Origin: a phage
Sequence record: PZ026127.1
Direction: 5' to 3' (one strand)
Length of the DNA: 64,000 nucleotides
The notes below the pieces were generated by a model. That model did not search any database. It saw only the letters and a program-made list of their open reading frames with translations, and had not been told where the DNA came from. The number at the start of each line of letters is the position of its first letter. Position 1 is the first letter of the stretch. Of this stretch, positions 1-30,965 are shown piece by piece. Position numbers and translations under genes: made by a program.

Positions 1-148
1 TTATCGTGACGTTTATTATACAAGTTATGAAAGTGTTATCAATGCAATTCGTGAAGCTTATGGATTGGATTCGTTATCTCTTGACCGCCTGTATAATGCA
101 AGCCTTTACACCAGCGGATTTATTTTAGAACAGCTACAAAAATAGTTT
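1..148 (+). CDS. 3' end of an upstream early gene (partial; possibly denB/endonuclease IV by T4 synteny)
   Basis: Open frame from window edge to TAG near 146-148; sits immediately 5' of ndd as denB does in T4; no sequence-level recognition. Confidence 0.3.
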
Positions 149-173
149 ACAACCTCGAGAATCATGTTATAAT
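145..173 (+). promoter_or_regulatory. T4-type early promoter upstream of ndd
   Basis: GTTTAC, 17 nt, TATAAT. Confidence 0.6.
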
Positions 174-222
174 GGTTCTCGTTGACTGGATAACAAACCA
201 TTAATCTACTGAGGAAATTGAT

Positions 223-672
223 ATGAATACTTATATGACTCGCCGTAACGTTCTGTCTGCTGGTGCTACTACTGTTGCTTATGTTAAGAACGGTGAATAC
301 CAAAATGGTAAACCTTCTAAAGAAATCTCTGCTCAGCCAGGCTTCTACTTCTTTGTTAAAGGTGGAGCTGATTCTCGTGTCGTAGCGGCTCGTTTTTATG
401 TCGGTAATCAACGTTCGGCCCAAGGGCTCGACGGTATCGTGGCTAACATTCGTAAGAAACGTTCTCAATCAGCTCGCACTATGGCAGTGAACGGTGTTGT
501 GTATGAAGTTCTTTATGTACCGGCTTCTAAGATGAAACCTCTGACTACCGGTTTTGGTAAGGGTCAAATTGCAATGGCTTTCACTCGCAATCATAGTTCC
601 GACCTCCAGACACTGGAAGAAATGAACCGTATGTTGGCTGATAACTTTAAATTCATCCTGCAGGCTTACTAA
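223..672 (+). CDS. ndd: Ndd nucleoid disruption protein
   Basis: 149 aa; C-terminal [23 protein letters not shown]...[20 protein letters not shown] matches remembered T4 Ndd (151 aa); early promoter and RBS upstream. Confidence 0.85.
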
Positions 673-845
673 TGAAATCTCTATTTGTAATGGGTTACCT
701 ATTAGTTTTAGCCTTATTCACATCGACCGGAGCCTTTATGGCTTTAGGTCTACCTCTTAATGATAATGTGGCTGTCGTTATGTGTGTAGGTGGTGGATTT
801 ATTTGTTTTGAACGTTTATGCAAAATGTGTGGTGTGTATGAGTAA
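672..845 (+). CDS. small hydrophobic membrane protein (57 aa), translationally coupled to ndd (TAATG)
   Basis: ATG overlaps ndd stop; hydrophobic [16 protein letters not shown]...; below ORF-track size cut-off, read by eye. Confidence 0.35.
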
Positions 846-915
846 TTTCCATAACGAACATGTGATGCAGTTCTATCGTAACAATCTTAAAACTAAAGGC
901 GTCTTCGGACGCTAA
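838..915 (+). CDS. stp: Stp peptide (suppressor of three-prime phosphatase; anti-restriction peptide that activates host PrrC)
   Basis: 25-aa [28 protein letters not shown], near-identical to remembered T4 Stp (26 aa); position between ndd and gene 52 as in T4. Confidence 0.8.
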
Positions 916-925
916 TGAGGAAAAT

Positions 926-1087
926 ATGGTTATCCTAGTTTTTATTGAACTTATTATGGCTATAGTCTGTTCAGTTTGCTTCTTTTTAGGTGTGTGGACC
1001 CCTGGTCCAATATTCTTAAGTTTTCTGCTTATTGGCTGGGTTCTTTCTACTTCTGTCGGTTTACTTAAGACGATTAAAAATGATTAA
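926..1087 (+). CDS. small membrane protein (53 aa)
   Basis: Hydrophobic ORF MVILVFIELIMAIVCSVCFFLGVW...; read by eye, not in ORF track. Confidence 0.3.
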   Translation: MVILVFIELIMAIVCSVCFFLGVWTPGPIFLSFLLIGWVLSTSVGLLKTIKND

Positions 1088-1220
1088 TAAAATCTTGGGC
1101 TACTCGTTAGCCCTTGCTGCTTTATTAGTAGCGCTGTATTATGGAGTAATGTTCGGACTTATCCAAGTTGTGCTTTTTATTTCCGATGTTATTATGGCTA
1201 TTCATTCACTAGTATGGTAA
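1032..1220 (+). CDS. small membrane protein (possible ac-like; alternative ATG start near 1080)
   Basis: 62-aa track ORF, hydrophobic; position directly upstream of gene 52 where T4 has ac; assignment by synteny only. Confidence 0.35.
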   Translation: MAGFFLLLSVYLRRLKMINKILGYSLALAALLVALYYGVMFGLIQVVLFISDVIMAIHSLVW

Positions 1221-1224
1221 AATT

Positions 1225-2553
1225 ATGGAATTAACATCTCGTGGTTTAAAAAGTATTATCGACAACGAAGCATTGGCTTATGCAATGTATACTGTCGAAA
1301 ACCGAGCCATTCCAAATATGATTGATGGCTTTAAACCTGTACAACGTTTTGTAGTTGCTCGTTGTCTTGATATGGCTCGTGGTAATAAAGAAAAATTCCA
1401 CAAACTAGCTTCTATTGCAGGTGGCGTAGCCGACCTTGGATATCACCACGGTGAAGGTTCTGCTCAGGAAGCTGGCGCTTTGATGGCTAACACGTGGAAT
1501 AACAACTATCCACTGTTAGATGGTCAGGGTAACTTTGGTTCCCGATTGGTTCAAAAAGCTGCGGCCTCTCGTTATATCTTTGCACGCATTGGAAGTAACT
1601 TTGCAAAAGTTTATAAGGACACAGAATATGCTCCGGTTCATGCTGATGTCGAACATAAGCCACCGGCTTTTTATCTGCCTATTATTCCTACTGTTCTTCT
1701 TAATGGCGTTTCCGGTATTGCAACTGGTTATGCAACTAATATTCTTCCTCATAGTTTTGATTCTGTTAAGAAAGCTGTATTGCAAGTTCTTCAGGAAAAA
1801 CGAGTAACCAAACCTAAAGTGGCTTATCCTGAATTCCGCGGTGATGTTGTTGAGATTGAACCAGGTAGTTATGAGATTCGTGGAACGTATAAGTTCACGT
1901 CTCGAACCCAAATGCATATCACAGAAATCCCATACAAATACGACCGTGAAACATATGTGGCCAAGATATTAGACCCTCTGGAAGAAAAAGGGTATATCAC
2001 ATATGATGATGACTGTGACGAGAACGGTTTCGGCTTCAAGGTTAAGATTCGTAAAGAATACGAATTGCCTACTGATGAAGATAAGAAGCATGAAAAAATC
2101 ATGAAGGACTTCGGGTTAATCGAACGTCGTTCACAAAACCTGACCGTCATTAATGAGAAAGGTAAACTTAAGGTTTACGAAGATGCAGTTGAACTGATTC
2201 GTGATTTCGTTGAGGTCCGTAAGACCTTTGTACAGAAACGTATTGATGGTAAAATCATCGAAACTGAAGAAGCTTTCAAACTGGCATTGGCTAAAGCCAC
2301 ATTTATCAAAGATGTTATTGATGGTGTAGTGGTTATCCAAGGTAAGACTCGTAAGGTTTTAACCGAAGAATTGGCCGGTAATAAAGTCTATGGCGAATAT
2401 GCCGATAAACTAGTGGCCATGAACATTTTCCATATCACTTCTGATGAAGCTAAGAAACTGGCTTTGGAAGCCAAGGCTAAGAAAGAAGAGCATCAATATT
2501 GGAAAACCACTGATGTGGTAACTGAGTATGTTAAAGATTTGGAGGCTCTATGA
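1225..2553 (+). CDS. 52: DNA topoisomerase II medium subunit
   Basis: 442 aa, same length as T4 gp52; topo II A-subunit-like N-terminus (IIDNEALAYAMYTVENRAIP...); followed by intrinsic terminator. Confidence 0.9.
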   Translation: MELTSRGLKSIIDNEALAYAMYTVENRAIPNMIDGFKPVQRFVVARCLDMARGNKEKFHKLASIAGGVADLGYHHGEGSAQEAGALMANTWNNNYPLLDGQGNFGSRLVQKAAASRYIFARIGSNFAKVYKDTEYAPVHADVEHKPPAFYLPIIPTVLLNGVSGIATGYATNILPHSFDSVKKAVLQVLQEKRVTKPKVAYPEFRGDVVEIEPGSYEIRGTYKFTSRTQMHITEIPYKYDRETYVAKILDPLEEKGYITYDDDCDENGFGFKVKIRKEYELPTDEDKKHEKIMKDFGLIERRSQNLTVINEKGKLKVYEDAVELIRDFVEVRKTFVQKRIDGKIIETEEAFKLALAKATFIKDVIDGVVVIQGKTRKVLTEELAGNKVYGEYADKLVAMNIFHITSDEAKKLALEAKAKKEEHQYWKTTDVVTEYVKDLEAL

Positions 2554-2652
2554 GCCTTGGAGTCGAGTTCTTGTTACTCTGTATCTTTGCTGTTATCCTA
2601 GGCCTGGCGACAGGCTTAGCTATAGGTTTAATAGCAGCCCACTTTAAAAAGT

Positions 2653-2677
2653 AAGGAACCTTCGGGTTCCTTTTTTT
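2653..2677 (+). terminator. intrinsic terminator after gene 52
   Basis: GGAACC-TTCG-GGTTCC stem-loop followed by T7. Confidence 0.7.
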
Positions 2678-2696
2678 GGGTTTAGTGCAAAAAAGT

Positions 2697-2728
2697 GTTT
2701 ACATCTGCTTTAAACATGATACTATAGA
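2697..2728 (+). promoter_or_regulatory. early promoter upstream of motA
   Basis: GTTTACA ... TGATACTATAGACC; member of repeated promoter family. Confidence 0.6.
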
Positions 2729-2763
2729 CCTATCAAATAAATGAACTGAAACGGAGATACAAA

Positions 2764-3399
2764 ATGTCTAAAATTACTTATATCATCAAAGCTTCTGAAG
2801 ACGTCCTGAATGAAAAAACTGCTTCGATCTTAGTACATATCATCAAGCATAACTTCATCACTTCAGGCGAAGTCCGTGAAGCCCTGAGTGAGCAATTTAG
2901 TGCAGCAGTGGTTAACTCTAACATCGGTGTATTGATTAAGAAAGGATTCATCGAAAAATCTGGTGACGGTTTAGTGGCTACAGGTGAAGCAATGGACCTG
3001 GTTCAAAAAGCTGCCGACCTGTTCGCTTCTGAAAATGCTCCAGAGATGTTGGAAAAACGTAAAACGCGTAGTTCACGTGGTGTTACTCCTGAAATGGTAA
3101 CACTGGCTGATGAAGTTAAAGCTTTATTAGAAGACCGTATCGAGATTCGTGAAATTGCTGAAAACCGTAGCAACCTTGAAGTTCGATTCGCTAAACGTAC
3201 CAATGGTATTCGTCAAATTGAAGTCCGTCGTGATGGAATGATGCGTATCTTCGGTTATAATATGACTGATAAAGAAAAACAAGTGTTTACTTCCTTGAAT
3301 CTTGATGTTAAGATTAAGACTGGTGGTAAGAATACTTATATCGACTTCCAAAACGTATCATCTGAAGTTATCAAAACCGTAACCAACGCAATTATCTGA
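2764..3399 (+). CDS. motA: MotA middle-transcription activator
   Basis: 211 aa (T4 MotA 211 aa); N-terminus MSKITYIIKAS.DVLNEKTA and ...SNIGVLIKKG..EKSGDGL match remembered T4 MotA; own early promoter. Confidence 0.85.
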   Translation: MSKITYIIKASEDVLNEKTASILVHIIKHNFITSGEVREALSEQFSAAVVNSNIGVLIKKGFIEKSGDGLVATGEAMDLVQKAADLFASENAPEMLEKRKTRSSRGVTPEMVTLADEVKALLEDRIEIREIAENRSNLEVRFAKRTNGIRQIEVRRDGMMRIFGYNMTDKEKQVFTSLNLDVKIKTGGKNTYIDFQNVSSEVIKTVTNAII

Positions 3400-26369: not shown

Positions 26370-26783
26370 ATGAAAGAAATCGCAGACGAATTTAGCTTTA
26401 TCAAGTACGTCACCCTAGAACTCCAAGATGACGCCAGCATTGCTCCACTCACAGTACCAAATAAACAAAATGTCATATATGCTATAGCGGTTGATGATAT
26501 ACTAGTCTACATCGGGAAGACTAAAAATCTTCGTAAGCGCATCAACTACTACCGAACCGCTATTAATCGTAAGGACCAAACGTCAGATTCGACCAAGTCC
26601 ATTCTGATTCATGAAGCATTAATGGCAGGTAAAAAGGTAGAGTTCTATGCACGGCAGTGCTTTAATCTGTCGATGACTAACGAACTTGGAACTATGTCAG
26701 TTGAGACCATGTCTCTTGAAGAGCCAATGTTCATAAAGAAATTTAATCCACCTTGGAATACCCAACATAGGATAAAGCAATGA
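26370..26783 (+). CDS. denA: endonuclease II (GIY-YIG family)
   Basis: MKEIA.E.SFIKY..LEL.D...I..L..PNK.NVIYAIA..D.LVYIGKTKNLRKRINYYRTAINRKD.TSDSTKS near-identical to T4 DenA. Confidence 0.85.
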   Translation: MKEIADEFSFIKYVTLELQDDASIAPLTVPNKQNVIYAIAVDDILVYIGKTKNLRKRINYYRTAINRKDQTSDSTKSILIHEALMAGKKVEFYARQCFNLSMTNELGTMSVETMSLEEPMFIKKFNPPWNTQHRIKQ

Positions 26784-27928
26784 TTGAATTATATGATAAC
26801 TTGATGGCCCTGGTTAAAAACTCGACTAAATCTAAGTTCTTCTTTAAAGACTTTCAGAGTGCGCTAGGAGTCAACTATCGCATCTTTAGTTATAACTATG
26901 CATCGTACAGTGATTGGTTGGAAGACGGCGCACTAGAGTGCCGAGGCATTATGTTTGAAATGGACGAGAACGGTCCAGTACGTATTGCTGCTCGTCCTAT
27001 GCAAAAGTTCTTTAACCTTGACGAAAACCCTCTGACCATCGGTCTAGATTTGTCACCAGAAAATATTGACCTCGTAATGGCTAAGGAAGATGGTTCTCTG
27101 ATTTCTACATTCATGGACCGACAGTATCTTTCTGTTAAATCTAAAGGCTCTATCCATTCATCAATGGTGCATGATTCTTTACGGTTCCTTCGTCTCCCTG
27201 AGAACGAGGCTTTTGCCGCACGTCTAGAAGAAATCACCAAAGCTGGGTATACCTGCAACCTTGAATATGTTGCACCTACCAACCGTATCGTGCTGGCTTA
27301 CCAAGAAACAAATCTCATCCTGTTGAACGTTCGTAATAATGAAACCGGTGAATATATTCCATATGCGGAATTGTTTAAGGACGGCGCACTGCGTAAGCAT
27401 TTGGTTGAAAGCTATGAGCTCGCTGAGGGCGATTTCGTAGAAAACATCCGTAAGCAGGAAGGCATTGAAGGTTTCATCTTTGTACTGAAAGATGGTACGT
27501 TCTTTAAACTCAAAACCGCCTGGTACAGTGCACTGCATCATACCAAAGATTCCATTAACAACAACGAACGTTTGTTTGAAGTTGTAGTGGCTGGTGGAAC
27601 TGATGACCTTCGTGGTCTGTTCAGTACAGATTCCTTTGCTATCGAGAAAATCGATGCCTTTGAACGCATCCATTTAGATTACCTAGAACAATCATTAGCC
27701 TTGTTAGAAGCAGCTTACTCTCAACTCAAAGGTCGCGACCGTAAAGACTATGCCGTTACTGGACAGCTAATCCTTAAGGACTTCCCAGGGTTGTTCTCTA
27801 TTCTTATGCAGGCGTACGTAGGCGGTATTAATTATGATACGGTCATGGACCAGATTAACTCTGTGTTCTTGAAAAATCATAAGGCCCAAATCCCTGAAAA
27901 ATATTTGAAAGAAATTGTGGTAGAGTAG
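26780..27928 (+). CDS. rnlA: RNA ligase 1
   Basis: 382 aa; YRIFSYNYASYSDWL...ALECRGIMFEMD...PVRIA.RPM.KFFNL.ENP match T4 Rnl1. Confidence 0.9.
   Translation: MIELYDNLMALVKNSTKSKFFFKDFQSALGVNYRIFSYNYASYSDWLEDGALECRGIMFEMDENGPVRIAARPMQKFFNLDENPLTIGLDLSPENIDLVMAKEDGSLISTFMDRQYLSVKSKGSIHSSMVHDSLRFLRLPENEAFAARLEEITKAGYTCNLEYVAPTNRIVLAYQETNLILLNVRNNETGEYIPYAELFKDGALRKHLVESYELAEGDFVENIRKQEGIEGFIFVLKDGTFFKLKTAWYSALHHTKDSINNNERLFEVVVAGGTDDLRGLFSTDSFAIEKIDAFERIHLDYLEQSLALLEAAYSQLKGRDRKDYAVTGQLILKDFPGLFSILMQAYVGGINYDTVMDQINSVFLKNHKAQIPEKYLKEIVVE

Positions 27929-29765: not shown

Positions 29766-30965
<1,200 letters not shown>

Follow-up and report, generated by a model that had tools for sequence, protein, structure and literature searches.

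The DNA analysed here, a stretch of 64,000 nucleotides from a phage (record PZ026127.1; hereafter the window), belongs to a JS98-like T4-type phage (Dhakavirus), and its ndd-52 region is 97.5% identical to that of phage IME341, with QL01, WG01, C6 and JS98 also close. Positions 672-1220, flanked by ndd and the topoisomerase gene 52, are filled by four micro-genes on the + strand, ORF1 (672-845, 57 aa), stp (838-915, 25 aa), ORF3 (926-1087, 53 aa) and 52.1 (1080-1220, 46 aa), exactly where a sequence-only reading had placed four tiny genes. Of these 549 nt, 98.2% lie in same-strand, ATG-initiated ORFs of 25 codons or more, a value reached by none of 5000 shuffles (mean 27.6%, maximum 94.7%). 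Synonymous changes exceed non-synonymous ones in each of the four (Fisher one-sided p 3e-7 to 6e-4), which identifies them as conserved coding sequences and rules out chance ORFs. The conservation in related phages, on which the sequence-only reading had let its proposal depend, is thus present, with dN/dS of about 0.05-0.5 and ORF3 against JS98 as the one exception; dN/dS of gene 52 against T4 was left out of the results, because an indel had misaligned the sequences and made the value unreliable.

All four products match catalogued families, namely phrog_5941 (ORF1), PF08133 (stp), phrog_9347 (ORF3) and PF24129 (52.1). The earlier description of the neighbours of stp as uncharacterised holds insofar as the ORF1 and ORF3 families are annotated as hypothetical in related genomes, but both are existing PHROG families and the fourth ORF is gp52.1 of T4 (DUF7396). 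ORF1, ORF3 and 52.1 encode strongly hydrophobic products, as had been proposed (GRAVY 1.21, 1.69 and 1.75), whereas the 25-aa stp product is hydrophilic (-0.94). A search of positions 1-3000 against Rfam returned no RNA family, its single match being a chance snoRNA (E 0.63). The cluster is an ordinary, already catalogued one, and there is no sign of a new kind of system.

Upstream of ndd lies a putative promoter of the sigma-70/T4-early type on the + strand (146..173, TTTACA-16 nt-TG-TATAAT, 11 of 12 consensus matches and an extended -10 TG), from which the early transcript of the cluster presumably originates. It is followed by ndd itself (223..672, +), which encodes the nucleoid disruption protein of 149 aa (Pfam PF06591, Phage_T4_Ndd, E 1.1e-68) and whose stop shares bases with the ATG of ORF1 (TAATG). 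The genes of the cluster are packed end to end, either in this manner or by 8-nt overlaps of the form ATGAxTAA, as between ORF1 and stp (ATGAGTAA) and between ORF3 and 52.1 (ATGATTAA). Shine-Dalgarno sequences are weak or missing at ORF1, stp and 52.1, so that translation of these genes most probably depends on coupling to the respective upstream gene, while ORF3 has a strong site of its own (GAGGA, 917..921, +) inside the TGAGGAAAAYATG junction. The 52.1 stop at 1220 lies 4 nt upstream of the ATG of gene 52 (1225..2553, +; topoisomerase II medium subunit, 442 aa), the Shine-Dalgarno sequence of which is weak. A fifth hydrophobic micro-ORF of 34 aa (2550..2654, +; family phrog_16377) overlaps the gene 52 stop, has a strong Shine-Dalgarno sequence (GGAGG) and sits where T4 has motA.1, to which it shows no similarity. 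Ahead of the motA promoter, with motA at 2764-3399, a hairpin resembling an intrinsic terminator (AAGGAACC-TTCG-GGTTCCTT, then a T-run; 2653..2680, +) is likely to be the end of the transcription unit. The T4-type early operon would therewith run from the early promoter through ndd, ORF1, stp, ORF3, 52.1, gene 52 and the 34-aa ORF to the terminator. RNAs of 52.1, ac and stp were classed as early in a proteome study of T4, and the region is dispensable in T4, since the deletion sa-delta-9, which removes 52.1 to denB, still gave a phage yield of 50% of the wild type (PMC6071114).

The best understood member of the cluster is stp. Its product scores 72.1 bits (cut-off 25) against PF08133 (Nuclease_act), with its residues 1-25 on profile positions 1-25 of 26, and also matches phrog_6763 (E 1.6e-20). 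It agrees with the first 25 residues of T4 Stp throughout, which bears out the earlier identification of the 25-aa ORF. The codon for Gln26 of T4, CAG, is replaced by TAA. At the nucleotide level stp is 98.7% identical to T4, compared with 73% for ndd and 73-81% for gene 52. Judged by its sequence, Stp is a soluble basic peptide that represents the T4-type allele of this PrrC activator and inhibitor of type Ic restriction. Stp was reported to bind and block the host type Ic restriction enzymes EcoprrI and EcoR124I, and its N-proximal 18 residues, all of which are conserved in the window, were implicated in the interaction with EcoprrI (reviewed in PMC3014915). Blocking of type Ic enzymes would unleash the anticodon nuclease PrrC in prr+ hosts. 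As the window also encodes homologues of pseT (Pnk, polynucleotide kinase/phosphatase; 30061..30963, +; 89.7% identity over 301 aa) and rnlA (RNA ligase 1; 26780..27904, +; tblastn with T4 RnlA, 49.6% identity over 377 aa, E 1e-117), the tRNA damage caused by Stp-activated PrrC could be repaired by the phage, the Pnk and RnlA pair mending it.

The last codons of stp (G-V-F-G-R) and the first base of its stop codon are spanned by a C(UUCG)G tetraloop hairpin (GGCGUC-UUCG-GACGCU; 898..913, +) with a folding energy of -9.3 kcal/mol (z = -2.2), a value reached by 6 of 200 shuffles. It is present in both stp alleles across 14 loci, with U-G or loop changes, and presumably acts in RNA stability or processing. 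The notion that G-V-F-G-R is conserved merely for encoding this hairpin was rejected, since an Stp-like peptide of Drexlerviridae retains K-G-V-F-G-K with different codons and the hairpin absent.

ORF1, which does not occur in T4, matches phrog_5941 over its full length (1-57 of 57, E 1.3e-27). With ORF1 as tblastn query 222 phage records were obtained, and in each mapped locus that has ORF1 the gene directly follows ndd, 1-5 nt from the end of the ndd coding region. Its dN/dS is 0.24-0.51, and the C-terminal tail is conserved (F-E-R-L/I...C-G-V). The AF2 model (pLDDT 69) consists of helices 2-24 and 31-53, and a two-helix membrane hairpin is accordingly predicted. A profile search of 1.84 billion representatives yielded only about a dozen clusters, with lengths of 47-61 aa; three long Cys-rich matches to the profile were treated as compositional false positives. 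Searches of Pfam, NCBIfam and PADLOC returned nothing for ORF1 or ORF3.

The product of 52.1 scores 78 bits (cut-off 27) against PF24129 (DUF7396) over residues 1-46 of 46, and is identical to T4 gp52.1 in 44 of 46 residues, the only substitutions being K3N and L41I. Of 30 loci examined, 28 have the gene directly upstream of gene 52; the exceptions are vB_EcoM_005, in which 52.1 is internally deleted, and PM2, which yielded no intact ORF with an ATG start. In the AF2 model (pLDDT 96.7) gp52.1 is a single helix of 44 residues (2-45) and not a hairpin. Within the gene lies a counterpart of the T4 promoter P52 (1171..1202, +) with the MotA box TGCTTTT (1171-1177), a 12-nt spacer and the -10 element TATTAT (1190-1195); the last base of the box is T as against A in the consensus, and T4 likewise has T. 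The start of P52 in T4 is given as 165227 (PMC2988021, where it is printed as 65227 in the table), which is nt 123 of T4 52.1 and matches window position ~1202. The 3' half of 52.1 would hence also serve as the middle promoter P52, dependent on MotA, and would sustain transcription of gene 52 once early transcription ends. A second candidate promoter of MotA type lies in the 5' half of 52.1 (1118..1142, +; TGCTTTA-12 nt-TATTAT). It is matched exactly only in the window and its three close relatives JS98, C6 and L008, occurs in T4 with a shorter spacer, and does not figure in the T4 promoter list (PMC2988021).

In a comparison of 12 sequences from several genera, no nucleotide stretch of 52.1 was better conserved than the P52 element, and the unusual conservation of the gene may in part be due to the embedded promoter. 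Taken further, this coincidence of the most conserved nucleotides with the MotA box and -10 element would fit a reading in which certain micro-ORFs, 52.1 in particular, are leader frames without a functional protein product, conserved for regulatory signals in DNA or RNA such as P52, the hairpins and translational coupling into gene 52. The abutment of 52.1 on a gene with a weak Shine-Dalgarno sequence, the internal deletion in vB_EcoM_005 and the T4 proteome study, which gives gp52.1, Ac and Stp as NA at the protein level, point the same way. However, of the changes between 52.1 and its T4 counterpart, which are distributed along the entire gene, 13 are synonymous and 3 non-synonymous (dN/dS 0.05), residues beyond the promoter are kept as well (L-Y-Y-G, S-L-x-W), and length and frame are retained in Klebsiella and Enterobacter phages despite a dS of ~1; moreover, no known regulatory element is present in ORF1 and ORF3. 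Leader frames of this kind are therefore considered unlikely.

The slot between stp and 52.1, which in T4 is held by ac, is filled by ORF3 in the window. The placement of ac between ndd and gene 52 of T4 by the sequence-only reading was correct, but a comparison with T4 ac revealed no homologue in the window. ORF3 matches phrog_9347 over its full length (1-53 of 53, E 4.1e-26), a family with 77 phage records, and is predicted to form a two-helix membrane hairpin; the family alignment shows a conserved turn, G-(V/A)-W-x-P. Its dN/dS is 0.18-0.27 where changes suffice, and 0.69 against JS98, a comparison with just 10 differences. Five Ac-type queries (T4 Ac, the JS98 Ac-like protein and those of Jiaodavirus, EcS1 and Kanagawavirus) gave a best E of 0.3 in tblastn over the 64 kb, while T4 Ac matched a 47-aa Jiaodavirus protein (E 9e-8) and a 49-aa JS98 protein matched Jiaodavirus genes (E 7e-8).

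It is nevertheless conceivable that ORF3 and T4 Ac are diverged orthologues and that ORF3, like Ac, renders infected cells sensitive to acridines. Both occupy the stp-52.1 slot, are of similar length (53 vs 51 aa) with a hairpin-like hydrophobic pattern, overlap 52.1 by 8 nt and end in N-D, and the AugustSocin/Bas38 record names an ORF3-type gene ‘acridine resistance protein’. The shared ending, however, is imposed by the conserved start of 52.1, which it overlaps (AAT GAT TAA over ATG ATT AA), and the two proteins gave no alignment in BLASTP. Between the two families the hhalign probability was 0.3%, the Ac motif S-V-(I/F)-S-Q-A-x-x-Q-G is missing from ORF3, and Ac-type and ORF3-type genes lie side by side in JS98 and EcS1, all of which renders orthology very unlikely. 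The window is, on these comparisons, without an ac homologue, and the ORF3 family differs from the Ac family. Labels such as that of Bas38 are positional and lack a basis in homology. ORF3 occurs without Ac in the window phage, QL01, WG01 and Bas38; the window phage is predicted to behave like an ac mutant on acriflavine, and phages with ORF3 but without Ac in general are expected to tolerate it. No acriflavine data for Bas38 were found in the literature.

Across the ndd-52 gap five mutually unrelated families of tiny genes occur (hhalign probability <2% for all pairs). The comparison with the small genes next to ndd in T4 that the sequence-only reading had suggested disclosed no relationship, as hhalign connected the five families neither to ndd.1-ndd.6 nor to motA.1. 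ORF1 is 94.6% identical to that of a Tequatrovirus-like phage and ORF3 90.8% identical to that of Tequatrovirus Bas38; the TGAGGAAAAYATG junction after stp is kept regardless of the gene that follows, with 12 of 13 bases invariant, and a recombination scar was detected in JS98. By sequence comparison, the micro-genes are accessory cassettes swapped between T4-like genera at conserved junctions. Exchange would take place at three of them, the ndd stop, the stp hairpin with the adjoining Shine-Dalgarno sequence, and the 52.1 start, and the cluster is an example of the way in which very small accessory genes pass from one T4-like genus to another at fixed junctions.

Taken together, an early operon with Stp, membrane micro-proteins, cassette exchange, a lacking ac and an embedded P52 is regarded as the most suitable reading of the locus, with a probability of roughly 0.8. 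The main yield is a corrected and tidied annotation and the recognition of a phage lineage without ac. Homology searches with ORF1, ORF3 and 52.1 returned only hypothetical proteins, so that a mechanism can be proposed by analogy only; a search of 5.8 billion proteins likewise gave just 4, 6 and 13 close relatives, all hypothetical, because such small ORFs are rarely called, and no Ribo-seq data for small ORFs of T4 were found in the literature. We infer translation, membrane insertion and binding partners for all three. Mutually unrelated, they would enter the inner membrane at an early stage of infection and would bind membrane complexes of host or phage without catalysis; our best guess is that they are small inner-membrane modulators of host envelope proteins. 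Bacterial small membrane-protein regulators, the subject of PMC12648545, are a comparable class. An action on host membrane or transport functions, as the sequence-only reading had suggested, is plausible from hydrophobicity and the analogy to T4 Ac, for which an impairment of AcrAB-TolC efflux is an unproven proposal (bioRxiv 10.1101/2025.06.30.662393).

The slot between stp and 52.1 contains a member of the Ac or of the ORF3 family, and in some phages one of each. Doubtful is the idea that it is a swap site for non-homologous two-helix micro-proteins, each of which would disable a different host inner-membrane machine, e.g., a particular efflux pump or transporter; if so, phages with ORF3 only should be acriflavine-tolerant, yet sensitise the host to another compound. 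A second possibility, likewise doubtful, is that gp52.1 tethers the phage topoisomerase to the membrane; in older T4 literature gp39 and gp52 were reported as membrane-associated. The three membrane peptides are candidate phage effectors on host envelope functions, including the phosphatidylglycerol phenotype of T4. That one of them is the factor stimulating host phosphatidylglycerol synthesis after T4-type infection is most improbable, for although sa-delta-9 (loss of 52.1, ac, stp, ndd, ndd.1-ndd.6 and denB) abolishes this stimulation (PMC6071114) and 52.1, stp and ndd are kept in the window, the deletion removes more than 10 genes with nothing to single out 52.1, ORF1 and ORF3 are missing from T4 and hence cannot explain its phenotype, and Pfam and other profile searches found no similarity to lipid-synthesis proteins.

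Compared with known systems, stp agrees with that of T4 in its order after ndd, its orientation, the company of Pnk and RnlA in the genome, residues 1-25 of the product, the terminal UUCG hairpin and the downstream Shine-Dalgarno junction. Unlike in T4, the terminal Gln26 is lacking and the stp start overlaps ORF1 instead of ndd, because ORF1 as an extra gene separates the two. The 52.1 gene and its promoter resemble T4 in their position 4 nt before gene 52 and in having MotA box, spacer and -10 element at the same nucleotides, but T takes the place of A at the base corresponding to the T4 start site. ORF3 shares with T4 Ac the genomic slot, the size, the hydrophobic pattern and the 52.1 overlap, a likeness that is positional and architectural only. 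Among bacterial small membrane-protein regulators, AcrZ is a 49-aa partner of AcrB with a single TM helix. The three hydrophobic peptides are like it in size class, in the lack of catalytic motifs and in their presumed binding to a larger membrane complex; they differ in being phage-encoded and without homology to AcrZ, and ORF1 and ORF3 are predicted hairpins as opposed to its single TM helix.

The window was assigned by megablast to Dhakavirus, the JS98-like T4-type coliphages, and its ndd-52 stretch is 97.5% identical to that of IME341, with C6, QL01, WG01 and JS98 also close. On the plus strand, an early-type promoter (146-173) is followed by ndd (223-672), ORF1 (672-845, 57 aa), stp (838-915, 25 aa), ORF3 (926-1087, 53 aa), 52.1 (ORF4; 1080-1220, 46 aa) and gene 52 (1225-2553). 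The sequence-only reading had described four tiny genes between ndd and gene 52, and the ORF map showed its coordinates and descriptions to be correct. ORFs on this strand occupy 98.2% of 672-1220, a share not attained in any of 5000 shuffles, and each of the four displays a synonymous excess (Fisher one-sided p 3e-7 to 6e-4). Estimated from relatives divergent enough to be informative, dN/dS is 0.24 for ORF1 and 0.27 for ORF3 (both against Gaprivervirus TH44), 0.10 between the two stp alleles and 0.05 for 52.1 against T4. Frame and length are preserved in phages of Klebsiella, Enterobacter, Serratia, Pectobacterium and Edwardsiella. Such a cluster is ordinary in T4-type genomes and has been catalogued before; as an observation it was confirmed, and its interpretation was partly supported.

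The starts of the predicted genes appear arranged for coupled translation: ndd and ORF1 meet in TAATG, ORF1 and stp overlap by 8 nt (ATGAGTAA), as do ORF3 and 52.1 (ATGATTAA), and 4 nt separate 52.1 from gene 52. Strong ribosome-binding sites precede only ORF3 (GAGGA) and a 34-aa ORF after gene 52 (GGAGG). In a multi-omics study of T4, the RNAs of 52.1, ac and stp were of the early class, with the protein class given as NA.

The region had also been linked to ac, the gene of the T4 acridine sensitivity protein. T4 does carry ac between stp and 52.1 (ndd-stp-ac-52.1-52), but this part of the reading does not extend to the window. T4 Ac and ORF3 gave no alignment whatever, an Ac-type and an ORF3-type gene lie side by side in both JS98 and EcS1, and no Ac-type sequence was found across the whole 64 kb; ORF3 is therefore no Ac homologue, and ac is missing from this phage. 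The N-D C-terminus common to Ac and ORF3 arises because both genes overlap the start of 52.1, which is conserved (AAT GAT TAA over ATG ATT AA). In the records of AugustSocin/Bas38 (MZ501052, 1501-1662) and vB_EcoM-ZQ3 (MW630116), an ORF3-family gene and, in one case, a gene under the 52.1 match are named 'acridine resistance protein'; these labels appear to be positional and unsupported by similarity to T4 Ac.

Mapping of the ORFs in 30 loci from about ten genera resolved the ndd-52 gap into five tiny-gene families: the ORF1 type (A), Stp with two alleles (B), the Ac type (C), the ORF3 type (D) and gp52.1 (E). Family C comprises T4 Ac, a 49-aa protein of JS98, a 47-aa protein of Jiaodavirus and a 45-aa protein of EcS1 with the common motif S-V-(I/F)-S-Q-A-x-x-Q-G; T4 Ac matches the Jiaodavirus protein (E 9e-8), and the JS98 protein matches Jiaodavirus genes (E 7e-8). 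No relationship between families was detected (hhalign probability below 2% in all pairs), nor any match to other T4 micro-ORFs of the region. Among 50,697 phage records, Stp matched 614, chiefly phages of Escherichia, Shigella, Yersinia and Salmonella, gp52.1 at least 730 (filtering limits sensitivity), T4-type Ac 463, JS98/Jiaodavirus Ac-type 38, ORF1 222, chiefly Klebsiella T4-likes, and ORF3 77. ORF1 adjoins ndd in every mapped locus that has it.

The gap is a modular cassette array. Identity to T4 varies sharply across the region, from 98.7% of nucleotides in stp to 73% in ndd and 73-81% in gene 52, and ORF1 and ORF3 share 94.6% and 90.8% identity with the Tequatrovirus-like phage SholemSchwarzbard and with Tequatrovirus Bas38, respectively; therefore, cassettes have recently moved between genera. 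Three junctions are fixed: one is the ndd stop, another the hairpin at the 3' end of stp together with TGAGGAAAAYATG, in which 12 of 13 bases are invariant whichever gene comes after, and the third the 52.1 start. In JS98 (NC_010105, 2353-2490), a frameshifted 5' fragment of 52.1 (~70 nt) runs into the 3' portion of a stp of T4 type and is followed by ORF3-52.1-52, with a second, partial stp present; this recombination scar looks like two alternative arrays joined.

The 25-aa ORF was rightly recognised as a T4-like Stp: it matches PF08133 with 72 bits (cut-off 25) and equals residues 1-25 of T4 Stp, Gln26 being absent because CAG has become TAA. As established in T4, Stp blocks restriction of type Ic (EcoprrI, EcoR124I), an action that frees PrrC, and the tRNA-Lys cut by PrrC is mended by Pnk and RNA ligase 1 (PMC3014915). 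In the window, Pnk (30061-30963, plus strand) is 89.7% and RnlA (26780-27904, plus strand) 49.6% identical to T4, a further sign of mosaic ancestry in this tRNA-repair pair. Over its final codons, stp folds into a C(UUCG)G hairpin (898-913; -9.3 kcal/mol, z = -2.2) that is retained in both alleles. Beyond the sequence-only reading, Stp-like peptides occur outside the T4 group, in the T1-like Drexlerviridae Veterinaerplatzvirus T145P1 (OZ035793, 1183-1275, 30 residues) and Tunavirus LHE71 (OP455115, 1501-1581, MSNWHNEHIMQFYRNRIKKLLNSTNC), whose records annotate no feature across either ORF. The hairpin was rejected as sole cause of the conserved G-V-F-G-R tail, since a Drexlerviridae Stp-like peptide has K-G-V-F-G-K in other codons and no hairpin. 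T1-like Drexlerviridae phages are presumed to have unmodified DNA; if so, their peptides fit anti-restriction as the primary role of Stp.

ORF4 matches DUF7396 with 78 bits (cut-off 27) and shares 44 of 46 residues with T4 gp52.1. Its gene also embeds a predicted counterpart of P52, the MotA-dependent middle promoter of gene 52, a feature not in the sequence-only reading. In T4, P52 starts at 165227 (printed as 65227; Hinton review), which by the 52.1 coordinates is nucleotide 123 of that gene; the window carries the same element on the plus strand (TGCTTTT, 1171-1177; 12 nt; TATTAT, 1190-1195). Across 12 sequences from several genera, no other nucleotide run of 52.1 is as conserved as this one, so part of the striking conservation of gp52.1 probably reflects dual coding with the promoter. 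A second, candidate MotA-like site (1118-1142) is less widely conserved than P52. In vB_EcoM_005 (IMG/VR copy of a 155,101-bp record), ~90 nt are deleted internally, so that ORF3 runs into the 3' end of 52.1 out of frame. Most of 52.1 and probably the MotA box of P52 are lost; either the isolate is naturally 52.1-null or the assembly is at fault. Some Dhakavirus records annotate gene 52 with a 17-codon N-terminal extension (459 versus 442 aa; C6, 2503-3882; WG01, 1837 onward), and in these two the sequence directly 3' of 52.1 is ATGGCTGA..., not ATGGAATT....

ORF1 (phrog_5941) and ORF3 (phrog_9347), neither with an assigned function, look like helical hairpins, as predicted for ORF1 by an AF2 model with helices 2-24 and 31-53 (pLDDT 69) and for ORF3 by two hydrophobic runs around a conserved G-V-W-T-P-G-P turn; gp52.1 is modelled as a single 44-residue helix (pLDDT 96.7). 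The W-T-P-G-P turn is encoded by a perfect inverted repeat (TGGACC-CCT-GGTCCA, 995-1009, plus strand). Another (GGGCTA-CTCGT-TAGCCC, 1097-1113, plus strand) lies in coding sequence near the 52.1 5' end, its stem retained in T4 and also in JS98, there with one wobble pair, its loop variable. T4 can do without the genes from 52.1 through denB: with the sa-delta-9 deletion it retains 50% of wild-type phage yield and loses the stimulation of phosphatidylglycerol synthesis (PMC6071114); impairment of AcrAB-TolC by T4 Ac is an unproven proposal (bioRxiv 10.1101/2025.06.30.662393). With low confidence, the three hydrophobic peptides ORF1, ORF3 and gp52.1 may be regarded as early inner-membrane micro-proteins acting through binding to larger membrane complexes.

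Downstream, the hydrophobic 34-aa ORF (2550-2654, plus strand; phrog_16377) overlaps the stop of gene 52, and the final bases of its own stop codon open a terminator-like hairpin (2653-2680, plus strand) with a T-run; motA comes next and has a promoter of its own. Though without similarity to it, the 34-aa ORF stands in the place equivalent to that of motA.1 in T4.
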